NCBI GenBank assembly: GCA_027923505.1
Contig: BROI01000007.1
Span: 620,001 to 684,000, forward strand
Direction of reading: 5' to 3'
DNA: 64,000 bases
Source of the DNA: Mayamaea pseudoterrestris
Taxonomy: Eukaryota
Positions 29,619 through 40,210 of this stretch are shown here, piece after piece. A model generated the notes under the pieces. That model searched no databases and had not been told where the DNA came from. It saw nothing but the letters and a program-made list of their open reading frames with translations. Position 1 is the stretch's first letter; each line of letters opens with the position of its first letter. The position numbers and the translations under genes were made by a program.

Positions 29619-32600
29619 CTAAAGATTAAACACCATATCTTCGCTTTGTAGTAAGCACTTGAGCAAAGGGTACTCGGAGTCATTTTCCAGATCAGTCGCC
29701 GATGGCATCTCCCACTCAAGTGCAGCAACCAATGCGCGGTGAGCGTCGGAGAAGGCCCGCTGGACTTGCAGGTATCGAAATGCGTTACGACCAACATTAT
29801 TGCTTTCGTTCAATGGATCTTCCACCCACAGTGGATCAAAGTTATACGAGACTCTGTGCTCAAAGTTGCTGCCAGTATTATTCGTCAGCGCGCCATCTTG
29901 GAGGTACATGTGAGGTGATGGAGACTGTCGTGACAATCCATGATGAAGCTGGTGGGGCCTTGCCATCATTAAGGGCCCATGACCAACAGCCTCAGCATTT
30001 CCTTTATCGCTGAAGCTATTTCTTCGGTAAAACTGAGTGTTTGCGGCAGGATGACTAATGTAGGTAGGTGTTTGCCATGACGGGGGCGTCGGAGTAGGAA
30101 CCGATGGTATAGTTCTGGGTTGCAAGCGAGATGACGAGTAACTTGGACGCGCAAAGTACTCCCGTCGTCGAATGCTAAGTCCTGTCGTCCGAGGATCAAA
30201 GAAATTGCCAAAAAAGTCCAGAAAGGATATCAAAAGGGCCCCAACGTCGACAAAGACCGAAGGTTGTTCCTGGAGGAATCGCGCAACCATTAAGAACAAG
30301 CAGTACGATGACAAACCACCAGTATACGCCGTCAAAAGGCTCTTGGTCAACAAAAATTGCTTCAGTACAAGCACCAGAGCTTGAATTGTTGGTAGTTCCT
30401 TTATAATCTGAGTCACCAATTCGACAGCCTCAAGGCCATGATGCCCGGGTGCATCAAATGTTATATCTAGCTGAAGTGCTCTGCCTTTCGCCTCTTTCGT
30501 AGAAACTTTAATCACAGGAACTAATGTGCGCTCTATCAACTTTATCGAGCGAGGGTCGATCCAAGGCTCGGCCTTTAACTTTCGGTATAAAATTTTCTGT
30601 GAGCTTTCGTTGATGGCGTTGCGGCCTTCCAATACACCAGGCGCCACAGCAACATCATTTTTGTGCACCGCTGGCAAACAGATGATGAAGTCAACGTCTG
30701 ATGATGGCAAACAAACGCCAGTTACATGACTCCCATACAGTTTTACTTGTGCTCGCGGCCACAACGTGTTGACTAATCGCATCATGCGTTCAACAGCATT
30801 TTGGCGTAACTGACTCTGCTTGCGAAGCTGCGCATGTGTAGCGTCGACAAACTGCCAGATATCTAAAGCCAGTCGCGATTGCATTCCATTTCGACGTAAT
30901 GGTTCATTGTATTCCCTTGTTTGATTAACAGATGAAGGAAAATGAAACTGCGTAGATTGTAGTGCCGCACTCGTTTGGTCTATAGACCAATCTGATTCCG
31001 TCATGCCAAATCCATGACGTCTCAAGGCTACAGACTCTTCACTCGCCATCGACTCGTGCTCTGCTCGAAATCCTGCATCACTCATTGCAGCCAGCGTTCT
31101 AGCTCTAGTTGATATGAAACCATGAGCCACCGACTCTGGGTCGAATACAGGCTCAGCAAGATTCGGTTGGAATGGACCGCCTGAAACACTGGCTGCTGGT
31201 GTTGACGACACCCTCTGTGTCGCAAGCAAATTAGTTAACTTTGCGACTTCTGCTTCAAGGGTTAAACACATGTCCCGATACGCATTGCGCTCTTCTCGCA
31301 ATCGCGTCGTTTCATCAGATTCATGATGAGTCGGTGCTGATGTGATGGTAGTCGTTTCATCTTTTGTCGTCGTGTTATTATCGCCATCGTCAATGCTTGT
31401 GTCAGGGCGATCCAGCCAATGGTCCATGTCAACTCCAGCTTCAAGTGTTTCGCTCCTGGCGCACAAATCTCTTGCTTCGCGTGAATTGTCAAAGTTAACA
31501 TGGCTTGGAGGTCTAGGCGATGTTGTCGACCCTGCAGTGGTGGTACACATTCCGGGCATCAAAGAGCGACTTGAAAGGCGGTAGCGATAAGTAGGTACGC
31601 CCCCGGATGGTACTCCTGCCTTGTGGACAAGAGGAATGGTCTCTCTGATGTCATGGTCGTCTCGCGCTTTCATTACAGCATCTTTCACCATCACAAAGCG
31701 ATAGCTTGAGAGGGCATCAGCCGGCCTGCGTTGTCGCTGAATATCATGATCGTCTCTTGATTTTATTGGCCGAGTAATACCAGAGCGGTAACTAACACTG
31801 CGCGATACCTTGACAGCCACTGTCTCGCCCATTGACGCAGTAGCGACCGCTAGAGTTCGGACATCGTCACGCGACCTAGTAGCATGCAAAGGTCGCATAT
31901 TAGTTGCCGTGACAACTGCTGGCGTTTCCGCACCAGTTGAGGAAGATAGTGACCGAGATAAATGCGGCTTTGAAGGCACAATTATGTCCACAGCCTTGCC
32001 CGATTTATCCACTCGACTACCCTTACCAGACTCCTCTCCCACTTTAAGTGAAAGACCATCTAACCTTGCTTTCGTCAAAGGCTCAAAACTCTGTTTCTCG
32101 GCTTGCGTTAGCTGCGGCTCAAATCCAACAAAGTCAAGAGTTGGAACTCGTATCCTGGAATTAGACGCAACTTGGTCAAGACTCGGAAAAAGCTCTGTAA
32201 AAATACTCTGCTCTCGAGATGCAAAGCCTTGAACACGTCCCCAATCGTCGAGTGCCGCATCACTTACGTCCCAGACCATACCACTGGCGTTCACAACAGC
32301 AGCGGGATTTTCGTGAGAGAGCTTTCGAATTGGAGAGGCACCTAGTATTCCGGACGTTGGTGTCGTTGCCAAAAACTGCTGCTCCGTCGCAACCATTGGC
32401 TGATTAGTCGGCAGCAGCACGGAATGTTGTGATAAGGCAACACCTGTCACCGGAACCATGGTATCGTCAACTAAAAGGTCGAACTTCTTTAAGAGGGGCG
32501 CAGTAGAATGTTCGCAGCGAGGGCTCGAGGTAGAATTATCAGGTAGACCGACCTTTCGACAAGCATTTTCGACTATCTCCTCAACAATAGAGAGAACAAA

Positions 32601-33553
32601 TATAGTGTTACGATGACGCTCGCGTGACGACGTCTTATTATCTGGAAAGGAGAGCTCCTGCTGCAACGAGTCAGCATCGTCATGGTCATTTTCCATAAGA
32701 ACTGACAAACTTTTCGTCATCTTACTGCTGCTCACACCTCCCACACTTTTACTCTTTCGATGACAATTCTTTTTTCGGCATTTCTTTTTGTGCCCATTCT
32801 GATTAAAGTCAACTTTAGACATTGAATCCTGTTCAAGCTCAGCAAGCAGTGACTCGGCCACAAGCGATGTGAGGAGCTCATGAACGTTTCTAGATATCGA
32901 CCGTTTCAGTTCCACCATGTGAGCATCAGCCATGTCTTCTAAGGTCAGTTCGTGTAAATTTTTCAAGCATCGTCGGGCACACGGGCGTGAAGTACTTCTA
33001 CAAATGCCATTACGTGGGCAAATTTCCAAGAGCCGCCATAAAAAGCTATCAATAATCCTCGACGTTTTTACTTCAACCAGCACATTTTCCTTCAATGCTG
33101 CCCCGACAACTCGATATATGACCAACCAGACAGTGTCTTCGGTCATGTGATTGAAAGCAGAAAAGACTTCACCGTGTGTGTTTATTGGTTTAGTGCCCCA
33201 GAACGCTTTCCATAGAGAAAATTCAAAGCGACATGCCAAGTATTTGCTCAAAGAGAACCAGTTCTCTGTTGGCTGCAGCCATGTGGTATTTGTTGTCGGT
33301 GAGTCGGACGCAAATTTACCTCGCGATGCAACCTTTAACATTCTGAAAACGAGGCGTTTCTTTGTAATGCCAGTTTCTGTGTTGCAGCCGAGGCAGAGCT
33401 GGTCCGTGTTGTACGAGCAGCTGTATCGTCCATTCCTCAATATATGAACCACAGTACCTGCTTGTAAGGCAGTGTCCATTTCGATTTGCTCTCGCGTGCA
33501 CCCCATAGTCAATCGTTGATGGCAGCGCCCCGATGCCTCGCCTTCGAAATTTC
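29619..33553 (-). CDS. Non-canonical poly(A) polymerase/nucleotidyltransferase (TRF4/TENT4-like), frame runs into LTR, probably 5'-truncated
   Basis: LYGSHVTGVCLPSSDVDF, VPVIK, LDITF, YTGGLSSY, VEDPLNESNNVGRN. Confidence 0.88.
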
Positions 33554-33750
33554 TGTTGAGCATGGATGAGAACCCAAACCGAAGCGGCAGCGGTGACGTC
33601 ACGAAGACGGTCAGTAGGCGTGGTAGCGGCGGCGACCGAAGAGGGTGGGAGCGTCTTCGGAGAAAATAAGTAAAGTGGTTTTATTGACTCTGTTCTGCTT
33701 AATCATTAGTGTCGCTTCAAGGGCGCGCAAGATATATTCTAGATCCAACA
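33554..33750 (+). repeat. 5' LTR of element 2 (197 bp)
   Basis: First 60 and last about 92 nt identical to the 3' LTR; central block differs. Confidence 0.93.
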
Positions 33751-33777
33751 TTTTCTCCAAGAAGCGAGTGAAAAGAC

Positions 33778-36700
33778 ATGTCTTCGACGAGCAATACTCC
33801 GACGACAGGAGCGGCGTCGAGCGGTGGAGGTGCACCTCCCGCTCCGCCAGCAAGCGAAGGAAACCGACGCAACCGTCATTATCGTCGTGGGAATCGTGCT
33901 GGGAATCGTTCCGGGAATCAAGGCAATGGTAACAGACTCAACGGACCGAGTCGTGCGCCGAGTGGAAATTTCCAAGGAAGCGAGCCGACGCTCGCTGGAT
34001 TCATCTACGACTATAACGGTTCGCGCGATCCCGATGGATTCATCCGTACGACGAACGAGATCATCACTTTCGTCGGGCGCTCCTACAAGAAATATACCAA
34101 GGAGCTGCTCAAGGGCATGCGCAACGTGGAACTGGAGATTCCTGACGAGCCTGCACGTCCAACGAAGGATGCCGACACGACGGACTCGGACTGGTCCATA
34201 ATGCTCGAGGAATACAAGGCCGACAAGAAAGAGCATGTCGAGCGCGTGCGTGTATACTCCGACTTCCTCGCTGGTCTCTACGCCGTGTTGCATGGACAAT
34301 GCACGGAGCGTATGAAGGATCGTGTCAAGTCGCACGCCAAGTTCCGAGACGCCGAGGAGGACACGGACGGAATTAAGTTGCTGGCGATTATCAAGGAGAT
34401 CTCGCATACGTACGAAGGGCGCTGCAAACTTGTGGATCAAGTCGTGGACATTCAAGCTGAGTTGTTCGGACGTACTCAAGGAGCGCGCGAAAGCCTGCAG
34501 AAATATTACGAAAGCATGGTCACGCTGGCAGACGTGGCGAAGGCGGTTGGCGTCACGATGCACAACGAGATTGTGGCGTTGAACATTGCCAAGGATGACA
34601 ATCGTAACAAGGCGAACAAGGAGGATATCAAGGCCGCCGAAGAGCTCGAGCTTGCGATGCTTTTCGTGCGTGGCGCAACGGGCGAATACGCTGGGTATTG
34701 CAAGCACTTGCGCAACTGCTACCTCGACGGGCACGACAACTTCCCGTTGACGATCCACGATGCATACAACATCATGCAGCGTCGTGAGCATGCGGATGGA
34801 GAAGCCACGTTGCCAACGAACGAGGGCGTGGCGTTTCACACGACTGGTACAGCGCGTGACCCTCCCAGATGCTGGACCTGTCAACAGGTTGGTCATGTGC
34901 AGCGAGACTGTCCTACGAGAACGGAGTCTACGGAGAGTGCGCCGGCTGCAGAGGCTAGTGGGGCGCAGCACTTCACGCTGGGTAGCGAGGAAGAAAGCGA
35001 TGACGACGATGAGGTCGGATACATGTTCGCGCAGCCGCCGAAGGTGAACATCTCGAAGAAGGCTGTGCTCTTGGACAATCAGTCGACAGTGGATCTGTTC
35101 TGCAACGCCAAGATGCTGACGAACATTCGCCCGGTGCCAACGTGGATGGTGATCAAGTGCAACGCTGGTACAGTAAGGACGAACATGATGGGCGACCTGG
35201 AGGGCTATGGTCCGGTGTGGTGGTATCCGCAGGGACTGGCGAACATTTTGAGTTTGGCGCAAGTCCGCAAGAAGTTTACCGTGGAGTATCTCATGCACGG
35301 CGTGGATCGTCCAATGTTCGTTGTGGAGAAGCCGGATGGTAAGCAGCGAGAGTTTGTCGAGACTGACTCTGGGCTGTATGTTTGCGAGAGCTTTTCGAAG
35401 GGCAAGCGCAGCGATGTCAAGGATGGAGTGGCGATGTTGACTACGGTAGACGATAACCGTACTAACTACACCAATGATGACTATTTACGCGCTGTTAGAG
35501 CTAGGGAACTGCAAATCAAAATTGGACGGCCAAGCCTCAAGGATTACCTGCGCATCGTTACTAGCAATCAGTTGCCGAACTGTCCTGTGACGAAGGCCGA
35601 CATCCTGGCTGCTGAGCACATCTTTGGACCAGATGTTGGCTCGTTAAAAGGAAAGACGACGCGTCGCGCGTCGCATCTGGTGAAGCCTGCGATTGTTGAG
35701 CAGCTTCCACCGGCTATCATGAGTCGCTATCGAGACGTTACTCTTTGTGCTGACATCATGTATATCAACAAAGTCCCTATGTTGGTGACGTTCTCCCGCA
35801 GCATTCGTTTTGCTACGGTTGAGGTGATTCAAAACCGTACGCTTCCGGTTATGTTGAAGGCAATCGAGTCTGTGTTGAAGATTTACGCACGCGGTGGGTT
35901 CCGTGTCGTCGCGGCTCTGATGGATGGGGAGTTCGCTCCAATGCTTGGCGCGTTGGCTGATCTCGGAGTGGCGCTCAATGCGACATCTGAGGATGAACAC
36001 GTTGGCGAAATTGAACGTTTTATCCGTGTCGTGAAAGAACGGGTGCGCGCGACATACAACACGTTGCCATTTAAGCACGTGCCGGCACGCTTGGTTATCG
36101 AAATGACGAAGTCTGCCGTGTTTTGGTTGAATGCGTTTCCGAACGAGCGTGGCATTTCGAAGGATCTCAGTCCACGCACTATTGTGACTGGTCAGACAGT
36201 TGACTTTAATCGGCATTGCAAGTATGAATTTGGTCAGTATGTGCAAACGCATGAGTCGCACAGCAATGACATGCAGGCGCGCACGATCGGTGCGCTGGCT
36301 CTGCGCCCGACTGGTAATGTGCAGGGTGGGTTTTATTTCCTCAGTTTGTCTTCGGGCAAAGTTCTGAATCGTGGGCACGCTACGCCTTTGCCCATGCCTG
36401 ATGATGTCATTGAGCGCGTGCATCGTCTCGCTCGTCAACAGAAGGCCAATCCGGGCATCGTGTTCATGGACCGCCACCGTGTTGCGGAGGCTGCTGAGCC
36501 AGTCATGTGGCACGAAGATGACGCCGAGGATGATGATGACTCTGATTATGATGACGACGCTTCTCGCGGTGACGACGACTCTGCCGGCGGAAGCGAAGGA
36601 GTGAATGCGACCGATGACGACGACGACGACGACGATGGTGCTGACGGCGCAATCGAAGGAGTGCCGAACGACGAGGATGGTGAGGCCATTGACGGCGAAC

Positions 36701-38624
36701 TTGACGACGCGCCAGCCGTGGATGATGGCGAAATTGAAGGAGTGCCCGATGAAGGCGAAATTGAAGGAGTGCCAGCTGCTGCAGACGAAGAGGATTTCGA
36801 TGCGCGCTATGGCCCACGCACTGGTCGGTATGGCCTGCGTGCGCGCAAACCTCGCTCGTTCGCTCATTTGTTCACGCTCGACGCTGCAGAGGAAGTGTCG
36901 GAGCCACTCGTCACGGCACAGATGAATATGCGACAAGGTTTAAAGGCTTTTGGCGATGCTGGAGTGGAGGCAGTGCGCAAGGAAATGCAGCAGCTACACG
37001 ACAGGCACGTCATGAAGGCAGTCCCCAATGCACTCTGACTCCGCAGCAGCGCAAGGACGCTCTGGCGTATTTGATGTTTCTCAAGCGCAAGAGATGCGGG
37101 ACTGTGAAGGGACGCGGATGCGCGGATGGACGCAAGCAACGAGCATACACTGCAAAGGAAGACGCAGCATCTCCAACGATAGCGACAGAGGCCATCTTTC
37201 TGACAGCTATCATTGACGCTATGGAAGGGCGCGAGGTTGCTGTGGTTGATGTACCGGGTGCTTTCATGCAAGCGGAAATGGATGAGTTGGTGCACGTTCG
37301 TTTCACTGGGAAGATGGTGGAGCTACTGTTGGAAATTGATCGCGAGATGTACGAGCCTTGCGTCACAATGGAGAATGGCGAGAAAGTCATGTATGTTGAA
37401 TTACTCATGGCGCTTTATGGTACGCTTCGAGCAGCGCGACTATTCTGGGAGAAGTTGTCCGCAAAATTGCTTGAGTGGGGCTTCGAGAAGAACCCGTACG
37501 ATCCGTGTGTGTGCAACAAGATTGTCAATGGGAAGCAAATCACCGTGGGATGGCACGTGGACGATTTGAAGATTTCGCACGTCGACGTGAGCGTAGTGGA
37601 TGAGTTCATCGCGCAGATGGATGAGGAGTTTGGCAAGGAGACTCCAATGAATAAGTCACGCGGAAAAGTGCACGACTACCTCGGCATGGTATTGGACTAT
37701 ACTAAGCCTGGAGAAGTAGCAATCAACATGGTTGACTATGTGAAGAACATCCTGCATCATGCGCCAGACGACATGGATGGAACGGCAGCTACTCCGGCAG
37801 CCAGTCACTTGTTTCAGATATCGGAAAATCCTGTCATGTTGAGCGAAGCGAAGAAGCAGATTTTTGTGACGATTGTGATGCAGTGTCTGTATCTGAGTCA
37901 GCGAGCGCGACCGGATATTCGCACAGCGATTTCTTTCTTGAGCACGAGGCTGCAGCAGCCTGACGAAGACGACTATAAGAAGGCTGCAAGAGTGATTAAA
38001 TATTTACGCGGAAGCGTGGACATGGTGTTGACGCTGAAGGCGGACCAGTCCGGGATAGTCCAGTGGTGGGTGGATGCGTCGTACGCGGTGCACCCAGACA
38101 TGAAGGGTCACACTGGTGGAACAATGACACTTGGCCAAGGATCAGTGTACAGTACGTCGGCTAAACAGAAGTTGGTAACAAGAAGCTCGACGGAGAGCGA
38201 AGTTGTGGGAGTTCATGATGTGCTACCGCAGTTGCTGTGGACAGGATATTTTCTGAAGGCGCAAGGTTTCGGGGTCAAAGACACGAAATTGTATCAAGAC
38301 AATATGAGTTCAATGCTGTTGGAAAAGAATGGCAGAAGCTCAAGTACAAAGCGCACGCGACACATGAATGTTCGGTACTTCTTTGTGAAAGATCGCGTGG
38401 CAGCTGGTGAAGTCAACATTGAGCATTGTCCGACCGGAGACATGGTCGCGGATTTCTTCACGAAACCATTGCAGGGAGCCCAGTTTGGCAAGCTCCGCAA
38501 CCTGGTTATGAATCTGGCCTCGAGCAGTAAGTACTACTCGGCCCAAAGGAGTGTGTTGAGCATGGATGAGAACCCAAACCGAAGCGGCAGCGGTGACGTC
38601 ACGAAGACGGTCACATTTAAGTAA
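33778..38624 (+). pseudogene. Gag-Pol of element 2 with a -1 frameshift near 37031
   Basis: CCHC knuckle CWTCQQVGHVQRDC, LLDNQST protease, ADIMY/MDGEF/EIER integrase, WHVDDLK RT, WVDASYA RNase H. Confidence 0.9.
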
Positions 38625-38764
38625 GCGCGGTAAGCGGCAACCGAAGGAGTGGATCGAGGACGATCACTTCTTGGAGAAAATAAGTAAAGTGGTTTTATTG
38701 ACTCTGTTCTGCTTAATCATTAGTGTCGCTTCAAGGGCGCGCAAGATATATTCTAGATCCAACA
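38554..38764 (+). repeat. 3' LTR of element 2 (211 bp)
   Basis: Direct repeat of the 5' LTR; carries the pol stop codon. Confidence 0.93.
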
Positions 38765-40210
38765 CTCTACCTCAGCGAAGAGTCTGGCTGGGGCGATGCA
38801 CCACATCCCATGGCAATCAGTACCGAAACAAAGGATGAAATTACCAACGAGTCAAGTGGTCGCGGCTTGCTAGCGCGTCGAGACATTAACGAGGGCGACG
38901 AGCTTCTCCGCATTCCAATGAACATGTGCTTGACAAAAAAGGCTGCGCGAAAGGCGCTCGGCAAGGATGCACTTGATGAAGGTATTAATGAATACTTGGC
39001 CATTGCTTGTCACTTGATTCACGAAAAATTCGTTGAGGGCAAGGCATCCACGTGGAAGGCCTATCTTGACATTTTGCCCGACGTGCAGGAAGTGAACCCG
39101 ACCTTTACCTGGAGCGACGAGGACTTGTCATTCTTGGAAGGCTCGCCTGTTGTGGCCGCCACCAAGTCTCTGCAGCTAAAGCTTCGGAGGGAATACGATG
39201 CACTACTTGGAGGAGAGACTGGCCTGATTGCCAAGTTTCCGGATCGATTTCCTGCCGACCGTTTTACATACGAGAATTGGGTTTGGGCATTTACCATGTT
39301 GTTCAGTAGAGCTATTCGTCTCCGAAACCTTCGGCAGGGAGAGACTCTTGCAATGGTTCCATATGTGGACCTCATTAATCATTCTCCCTTTTCACAAGCC
39401 TACGTGGACGCACGCGAAACTGGTGACTGGCTCTTCAAAACCGGCGAAGAGGAAGTCATTCTCTACGCGGATAGAAGGTATCGACGCATGGAACAAGTCT
39501 ACATTTCGTATGGACCAAAATCGAACGCAGATTTGCTTCTACTTTACGGATTTGCAGTGGAGCGCAACCCGTTCAACTCGGTCGACGTGACCGTCTCAAT
39601 TGCACCTCGAACGGCGTCCTTTGTCGCGGAACTCAACGACGATAGCATTCCCATTGACCCGTTGGCGGAACAAAAGATGGCCTTCCTTGAGCAAGTCGGT
39701 CGAGAAGAGACGGTCGACTTTCCTTGCTATGCTGATCGATACCCGACGGAGCTGCTCGAATATTTACGATTGATGCAAATGACACCGGAGGATACGCGCG
39801 GAAAGGACTTGTCAGAGTTTGACTATAGTCGAACCATTTCCCCCGCGAATGAAGCAGCAGTACTAAACTCGGTCATTACCGCCATTAAGCGACAGCTGAG
39901 CAAGTACCCGCAGTCAGAGGATGATGACGCAGCCATTATCAAGGACAAGGGTCTCTTTCGTTTATTGTCGTACAATCAGAGAATGGCAGTGCGCCACCGC
40001 CGAAACGAAAAGCGATTACTGAAACGAACCATTGCTGCATTGGAGCGCCAACTCAAGCAGCAGGGACTTGATGATGAGGATCTTGCACGCGCCGATGGAA
40101 GTACGCTGGGCAAGGTATTGCCTGGCGATCAGCGTAAGTTTGGAACAAAGCAAAAGACGGCACTGGAAGATCGGCTAGAGAAGCTGGGCCTGCCAGTTGA
40201 TATTCGATAA
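38765..40210 (+). CDS. SET-domain Rubisco-LSMT-family lysine methyltransferase, N-terminus apparently replaced by LTR
   Basis: GRGLLARRDI, FSRA, MVPYVDLINHS, QVYISYGPKSNADLLLLYGF; frame is open back into the LTR; first in-frame ATG at 38810. Confidence 0.9.
   Translation, partial: LYLSEESGWGDAPHPMAISTETKDEITNESSGRGLLARRDINEGDELLRIPMNMCLTKKAARKALGKDALDEGINEYLAIACHLIHEKFVEGKASTWKAYLDILPDVQEVNPTFTWSDEDLSFLEGSPVVAATKSLQLKLRREYDALLGGETGLIAKFPDRFPADRFTYENWVWAFTMLFSRAIRLRNLRQGETLAMVPYVDLINHSPFSQAYVDARETGDWLFKTGEEEVILYADRRYRRMEQVYISYGPKSNADLLLLYGFAVERNPFNSVDVTVSIAPRTASFVAELNDDSIPIDPLAEQKMAFLEQVGREETVDFPCYADRYPTELLEYLRLMQMTPEDTRGKDLSEFDYSRTISPANEAAVLNSVITAIKRQLSKYPQSEDDDAAIIKDKGLFRLLSYNQRMAVRHRRNEKRLLKRTIAALERQLKQQGLDDEDLARADGSTLGKVLPGDQRKFGTKQKTALEDRLEKLGLPVDIR

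Follow-up and report, generated by a model that had tools for sequence, protein, structure and literature searches.

Family-specific LTR/PBS complementarity points to probable self-priming in a Ty1/copia retrotransposon with diatom-like relatives

Here, we describe a Ty1/copia-type retrotransposon that appears to prime its own reverse transcription. Next to its 5′ LTR lies a putative primer-binding site (PBS) whose reverse complement is present in the element's own LTR, and this complementarity recurs, through different sequences, in related elements from metagenomes. Self-priming of the kind known from Tf1, which an earlier note on this DNA had proposed, is probably the best explanation of the match. 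The interpretation is supported by covariation of LTR and PBS in the relatives, by a conserved CA, and by the abrupt end of pairing at that CA. The element apparently belongs to a Ty1/copia clade whose hosts are diatoms and other marine protists. To our knowledge, self-priming has been proven only in gypsy-type elements of fission yeast and predicted for a few other groups.

RESULTS

A copia-type element in a 64-kb window

The element measures 5.2 kb and lies inside the window, by which we mean the whole 64-kb stretch of DNA analyzed here (Table 1). Of its two gag-pol open reading frames (ORFs), the first encodes a zf-CCHC zinc knuckle (amino acids 364 to 379), and the second matches Pfam RVT_2, the copia-type reverse transcriptase (RT; E = 3.8e-17). 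RVT_2 is present in the full-length relatives L010 and L043 as well. RT-RNase H is the last domain, the ORF stop falls inside the 3′ LTR, and there is no space for an integrase downstream. This order of domains fits Ty1/copia. Membership of the Tf1/sushi clade was considered and rejected, because the RT is RVT_2 and RT-RNase H comes last, in place of the order PR-RT-RH-INT.

Table 1. Features of the element, in window coordinates.
Feature	Position	Strand	Remarks
5′ LTR	33554..33750	+	197 nt, TGTTG..CAACA
Variant of primer segment, GTCTTCGGAGAAAA, in 5′ LTR	33653..33666	+	direct reading
PBS (putative)	33751..33764	+	14 nt abutting the 5′ LTR end; exact reverse complement of 38667-38680
gag-pol coding region	33778..38624	+	ORFs 33778-37038 and 37071-38624
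Purine-rich tract AAAGGAGTG	38545..38553	+	immediately 5′ of the 3′ LTR
3′ LTR	38554..38764	+	211 nt, TGTTG..CAACA
Hairpin-forming palindrome	38646..38670	+	at the predicted U3/R border
Initiator-like TCA	38664..38666	+	A is the predicted transcription start, or the base preceding it
Self-primer segment (predicted)	38667..38681	+	14 nt pair with the PBS

Protease and integrase would be expected at window positions 34900-36480 (polyprotein amino acids about 375-900). The 700 amino acids between the zinc knuckle and the RT gave no sequence match in Pfam, NCBIfam or PDB, and neither did the same stretch in L010 and L043. In the nearest ESM Atlas clusters, 10-24% of members carry rve or gag_pre-integrs, which is a weak lead; the region of amino acids about 375-900 looks like a very divergent integrase. 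Between this presumed integrase and the RT, at 36500-36800, lies an acidic repetitive stretch, in which direct repeats of 20-33 nt encode D/E-rich units (e.g., DGEIEGVP).

At the start of the 3′ LTR, a junction reading ..AGGAGTG/TGTTG is common to the relatives L003, L004, L028, L033, L038, L048, and L054. Long ORFs flank the element on both sides and reach into the LTR ends, namely 29619-33602 on the minus strand (1327 amino acids) and 38723-40210 on the plus strand (495 amino acids). These are presumably host genes.

Among named proteins, the closest relative comes from the diatom Nitzschia (63%); unnamed metagenomic proteins go as high as 80%, and the nearest ESM Atlas clusters are labeled Bacillariophyta. 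Among viral contigs, no relative was found.

The PBS is complementary to the LTR

The earlier note had claimed an exact 15-nt reverse complement between 33750-33764 and 38667-38681, with the latter segment placed one base past an initiator-like A, and had found the TGG of a tRNA-type PBS to be absent. All of this stands. A repeat search returned arms of 18 nt at 94% (33750-33767 and 38664-38681), 15 nt of which are exact, and direct reading agrees; a TCA lies immediately 5′ of the LTR segment; and no TGG is present directly after the 5′ LTR. Since A33750 is the last base of the LTR, the PBS proper has 14 nt, and T38681 offers an extra pairing with that last LTR base.

The exact 14-mer occurs only twice in the window, at 33751-33764 (+) and 38667-38680 (-). 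With two mismatches allowed, there is one further site, against about 0.55 chance matches expected at two or fewer mismatches. By our own arithmetic, a 14-mer at the LTR edge would have its complement anywhere in a 211-nt LTR by chance with a probability of about 7e-7. No tRNA gene was found in the window or in 20 related loci. An Rfam search gave two weak snoRNA-like matches, both far under the gathering score, and none in LTR or PBS.

The complementarity is widespread among relatives

We gathered 78 metagenomic loci with an RT-RNase H alignment, in which the RT is 47-70% identical; pol was used to fetch them because gag alone gave only one homologue. These loci and the window stretch (79 sequences, 381,938 nt) were scanned for perfect inverted repeats of at least 12 nt with a gap of 30-300 nt. 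The scan returned 56 such repeats, in comparison with 3-10 (mean 4.95) in each of 20 block-wise dinucleotide shuffles. Fifty-four of the 56 lie at a ..CA/PBS junction, in 45 loci, and one additional repeat, in L026, lies at an LTR end reading CAACT. With one 12-nt repeat in the pol region of L018 and one truncated duplicate in L022 removed from the set, 47 junction instances in 46 loci are left. A perfect inverted repeat of 12-17 nt is present in 46 of the 78 related loci; as the loci are mutually related, these counts are of non-independent events.

The layout of the repeat is highly regular. In 47 of 47 instances the right arm begins precisely at the LTR end. The left arm is found ~100 nt farther upstream within that LTR, at a median distance of 104 nt from the LTR end (range 38-192). 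The PBS is 14 nt long in 31 instances, 15 nt in 13, 12 nt in 2, and 16 nt in 1. CAACA forms the LTR end in 44 of the 47, and none of the 47 PBSs starts with TGG. We rejected a tRNA-type PBS on this ground, for the relatives as for the window, where TGG is likewise missing after the LTR.

Further loci add to this picture. In L043, the 5′ PBS matches the 3′ LTR at 14 of 14 positions, which is the same layout as in the window. A relaxed scan of the remaining loci added L058, with 13 of 14 positions matched at the proper junction and one mismatch. L080, a contig from a genome collection, has a 15-nt match, and L067, a decayed copy, has 10 nt of the match left. None of the remaining 29 of the 78 loci has both partners without complementarity: one partner is missing or no call is possible. 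Seventeen of these 29 are too short at both sides. In L003, L004, L010, L038, L054, L055, and L076, the 3′ LTR is followed by unrelated flank and the 5′ end is off the contig; L015 has a PBS and an LTR cut 46 nt before its end; and for L028, L033, and L048 no call was made. Every assessable relative retains the complementarity, via different sequences, as the proposal of self-priming had required of related elements.

In L072 (3899-3915), also among these 29 loci, the 3′ LTR end is followed by seven bases identical to the PBS start of the close relative L070 and then by unrelated sequence. L072 may be a truncated or rearranged copy.

Many contigs of relatives are circularly permuted or consist of units repeated head to tail, with just one LTR from unit to unit, which leads straight into the PBS and gag. 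Ends that are identical over 77-141 nt occur in L005, L007-L009, L013, L014, L017, L022, L031, L046, L050, L053, and L080, and tandems in L002, L035, L069, and L078. The single LTR may reflect two LTRs collapsed by the assembler, or the contigs may represent real tandem arrays or one-LTR circles. Most junctions reported here were read from contigs in which two LTRs are collapsed in assembly. Some relatives are found in bins of bacterial metagenome-assembled genomes (MAGs), namely L080 (a Gloeobacterales MAG) and the protein P0013 (labeled Comamonadaceae). Both look like cases of eukaryotic sequence contaminating the bins.

LTR and PBS covary

The 47 instances contain 38 distinct PBS sequences, which differ on average at 6.8 of every 12 nt and vary at all 14 positions. 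We find that the complement of the PBS core is present in the element's own LTR in 38 of 38 cases, and in the LTR of a locus with a different PBS in 0 of 1406 pairs. The covariation check proposed in the earlier note, run here on sister families, comes out clearly in favor of the proposal.

Compensated changes are also seen between close relatives. Among near-identical elements, L074 and one unit of L078 differ from L077 and the other L078 unit at two arm positions, both of which are compensated in the PBS, and further compensated changes separate L035 from L036 and L006 from L007. The pair in L016 differs from that of the window at one position, which is changed on both sides.

The arms are paired in the minimum-free-energy structures of 43 of 44 distinct leaders, and internal hairpins are visible between the primer segment and the PBS in the single-sequence folds. 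When 39 leaders were aligned with MAFFT, their PBS ends fell into register and their 5′ ends did not, and anchored scripts were therefore used in place of the alignment. The R-U5 regions of L034, L037, L038, L045, L050, and L055 share an internal hairpin, in which GGTTGGGG is followed by a loop and a CTCCACC-like strand. This hairpin could correspond to the U5-IR stem found in Tf1 and in retroviruses.

Pairing ends at an initiator-like CA

The inner border of the complementarity coincides with the LTR end, which is by definition the starting point of minus-strand synthesis. At the outer border, an initiator-like CA is found in 44 of the 47 instances, most of which read CTCA. In 34 instances, CA stands just 5′ of the left arm; in 10, the arm itself begins with an A that follows a C; neither applies in 3. 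Beyond the arm, complementarity is absent at the first position (0 of 41) and at chance level at the following six (9-14 of 41). Because the PBS would be a copy of the primer and would lengthen with a longer primer, such a sharp outer border suggests that the RNA begins there. The CTCA at the arm border would fit a Pol II initiator, and the border pattern is consistent with a transcript 5′ end at about 38666/38667. One detail counts against a simple self-priming reading: the A of the CA lies outside the complementarity in 34 of the 47 instances. Either transcription would start at the next base, or a capped first base would remain uncopied into the PBS.

A hairpin at 38646-38670 spans the predicted start, and its 3′ strand closes with TCA and the first 4 nt of the primer segment. 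L002, L006, L034, L037, L044, L050, L069, L074, and others have a similar palindrome in the 40 nt that lead up to the left arm. These start-spanning hairpins end in CTCA and the first 2-4 nt of the primer segment. Of 39 distinct contexts, 13 give a z score under -2; the mean z is -1.74.

At the position directly after the PBS (33765 in the window, and its counterpart at the relatives' junctions), 22 of 41 distinct contexts have a C, compared with a background of 19% C in the next 10 nt. The binomial P value of about 5e-7 is a rough guide only, since the sequences are related. As a speculation, this C may relate to copying of the cap. There were no poly(A)-tailed contigs, whose tails could have marked transcript ends, among L001-L078.

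The window copy is probably a composite

In the window copy, the two LTRs show no difference in the first 60 nt or in the last 92 nt. Their cores differ strongly (33614-33658, 45 nt, versus 38614-38672, 59 nt), and the divergent part takes in the first six bases of the primer segment. The matching segment is found only in the 3′ LTR of this copy. In its place, the 5′ LTR has GTCTTCGGAGAAAA, a variant that pairs with the PBS over only 8-9 contiguous nt, at its 3′ end, and has neither a preceding TCA nor the hairpin half. This counts against self-priming, as the 5′ LTR would be the source of the RNA 5′ end. The TG..CA ends are present, and a 5-bp target-site duplication is absent (ATTTC at 33549-33553 versus CTCTA at 38765-38769). 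A fresh insertion ought to have identical LTRs, and the matching segment is confined to one of them; the window copy therefore probably arose by recombination of two copies, or is a chimera made in assembly.

Near 37022, within a C run (37010-37030), pol is divided by a frameshift of 1 nt. The contigs of all four public runs (X2, X5, X4, and X6) have one additional C behind 37022, which gives a single gag-pol frame of 1615 codons. As all four runs have this C, the frameshift is private to the window's assembly or copy, and is likely an assembly error or a private mutation.

The contigs of X2 and X5, which come from one study, proceed from a 3′-LTR-type segment through R-U5 to the PBS and gag, with a joint from 38672 to 33659. 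Run X2 may be the source of the window DNA. Contigs of X6 run on into other sequence at both LTR boundaries, with loose ends at 38553 on the near side and at 38765/38766 on the far side, which suggests further insertions. Among the listed contigs, those from X2, X5, and X4 reach neither 33554-33658 nor the flanks, and X6 alone covers the flanks; stretches left uncovered in this mapping carry no weight as proof.

DISCUSSION

A model of self-priming

We propose that transcription would start at the CA just 5′ of the complementary LTR segment (38666/38667, LTR-equivalent). The RNA would then fold back across about 85-105 nt of R-U5, so that its first 14-16 nt could pair with the PBS abutting the LTR. 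The duplex would be cut at the 3′ end of the paired segment, presumably by the element's own RNase H, and the short 5′ fragment would be extended into U5 as the minus-strand primer. Later, the plus strand would copy the primer, so that the PBS would be rewritten from the primer in every cycle. Plus-strand copying of the primer into the PBS is established for the tRNA primers of retroviruses. Such rewriting would keep the match perfect.

A more far-reaching version of this model holds that self-priming arose independently in an entire clade of diatom Ty1/copia elements and is obligatory there, with the capped 5′-terminal 15-16 nt as the primer. We regard this version as doubtful. If the primer were capped, a C after the PBS would be expected, with the RT adding or needing a C opposite the cap guanosine. 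The start-site hairpin, which would be present only in the 3′ copy of R, could then stop that copy of the primer from competing.

Alternative explanations

The inverted repeat might instead be a stem in the RNA leader with some other role, such as packaging, dimerization, translation control, or help in strand transfer, while the real primer is something else. The arms would then pair in predicted folds just as they do, as any stem would, and fungal GalEa copia elements provide a precedent, with a conserved hairpin described at the PBS position (PMC5445492). The self-primer itself is, moreover, a prediction from sequence. Against this reading, the right arm starts at the last LTR base in 47 of 47 instances, which is where minus-strand synthesis must begin. 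A purely structural stem should also tolerate G-U pairs and mismatches, whereas the arms are perfectly Watson-Crick paired and of nearly constant length across 46 loci; this argument is limited by the scan, which detects perfect repeats only, and its relaxed form added a single 13/14 case (L058). In addition, there is no alternative PBS candidate, with a TGG start in 0 of 47. We therefore consider a leader stem of this kind improbable.

Slightly less probable still is priming in trans, by a short RNA from transcripts of other copies or of solo LTRs, or by the 5′ end of a co-packaged second RNA. For the window copy, with its matching segment in the 3′ LTR only, the primer would indeed have to come from another copy, and the loose ends in the X6 contigs suggest that further insertions exist. 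In the 46 loci of the scan, the matching segment lies ~100 nt upstream of the PBS in the same LTR, and since it is directly upstream, a fold-back in cis is possible and simplest there. On sequence alone, priming in cis and in trans are indistinguishable. By far the least credible explanation is that the match arose by chance, or that a host tRNA or tRNA half pairs with the PBS, whose match to the LTR would then be incidental. Matching of 38 of 38 PBSs by their own LTR and 0 of 1406 by others, 56 repeats observed against a shuffle mean of 4.95, and the lack of TGG at the start of any PBS (0 of 47) all speak against it. Self-priming thus remains our preferred reading of the complementarity.

Implications

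Self-priming would make a retrotransposon independent of host tRNAs, and would evade silencing by tRNA fragments that is aimed at tRNA-primed elements. A marine copia clade with a self-primer of 14-16 nt would offer a second, independent system for testing the rule. The complementarity also provides a simple rule for annotating LTR/PBS borders in diatom genomes, and, being family-specific, the pair of arm and PBS is a built-in lineage marker. PMC2806351 surveyed two diatom genomes, in which LTR retrotransposons were the most abundant kind of transposable element, and also describes their activation by stress in Phaeodactylum tricornutum. Given this abundance and stress activation, their mode of replication bears on the evolution of diatom genomes.

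Comparison with known systems

Diatom Ty1/copia elements have been described as CoDi elements (Maumus et al. 2009, PMC2806351). The element resembles them, as they are characterized there, in its apparent diatom host, its length of ~5.2 kb, its short LTRs with TG..CA ends, and its relatives in ocean metagenomes. The main text of that paper contains no PBS analysis: the words "tRNA" and "priming" occur 0 times, and "PBS" denotes a buffer only. In the literature on self-priming in connection with diatoms, Pseudoviridae, or copia and algae, we found no description for diatom elements.

Elements of the copia, Ty5, and Osser types are primed by half of tRNA-Met, with a PBS that lacks the TGG of the tRNA 3′ end, according to the account in PMC6317226. 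They share with the element a copia-type identity and a PBS without TGG. A half-tRNA-Met PBS is similar across families, because it is set by a conserved tRNA, whereas the PBS described here varies by family and tracks the element's own LTR. The 38 PBS sequences, each matched by its own LTR only, argue strongly against priming by a tRNA or half-tRNA.

The fungal GalEa copia elements likewise have no tRNA-type PBS, and carry a Conserved Hairpin Site at the PBS position (PMC5445492). In that account, the site forms a palindrome locally, with the last LTR base as part of it, and no complementary LTR segment was found. The PBS partner of the present element, in contrast, lies ~100 nt upstream in the LTR.

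A similar arrangement is known from Tf1 and Tf2 of Schizosaccharomyces pombe and Tj1 of S. japonicus. Passages of PMC7175516 and PMC4600332 describe for these elements a PBS complementary to the 5′ end of their own RNA and, for Tf1, a primer cut out by RNase H. They resemble the present element in having, next to the 5′ LTR, a PBS complementary to their own sequence, and no tRNA-type PBS. Tf1/sushi elements are gypsy-type chromoviruses, whereas the present element has a copia-type RT (RVT_2) and RT-RNase H as its last domain. The complementarity is 14-16 nt in this element and its relatives, compared with 11 nt as given for Tf1. Self-priming of Tf1 was proven by experiment, whereas for the present element it is proposed from comparison of sequences.

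Within Ty1/copia, a self-primed PBS has been predicted for the plant TAR lineage (PMC6317226), and self-priming was proposed for the plant elements Houba and Osr-1 (Capy 2005, as cited in PMC6317226). The premise of the earlier note, that the mechanism is known from gypsy-type elements only, is outdated in light of these predictions for Houba, Osr-1, and TAR. The TAR elements are like the one described here in being Ty1/copia with a PBS predicted to be self-primed. They differ in their hosts, which are green plants, while the relatives of the window element are diatom-like (Nitzschia, 63%; Bacillariophyta clusters). Self-priming is thus not new for the copia superfamily, the prediction for plant TAR elements in PMC6317226 being earlier. 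What we present appears to be a large and diverse new lineage that would use this known mechanism, and for which the comparative evidence is strong.
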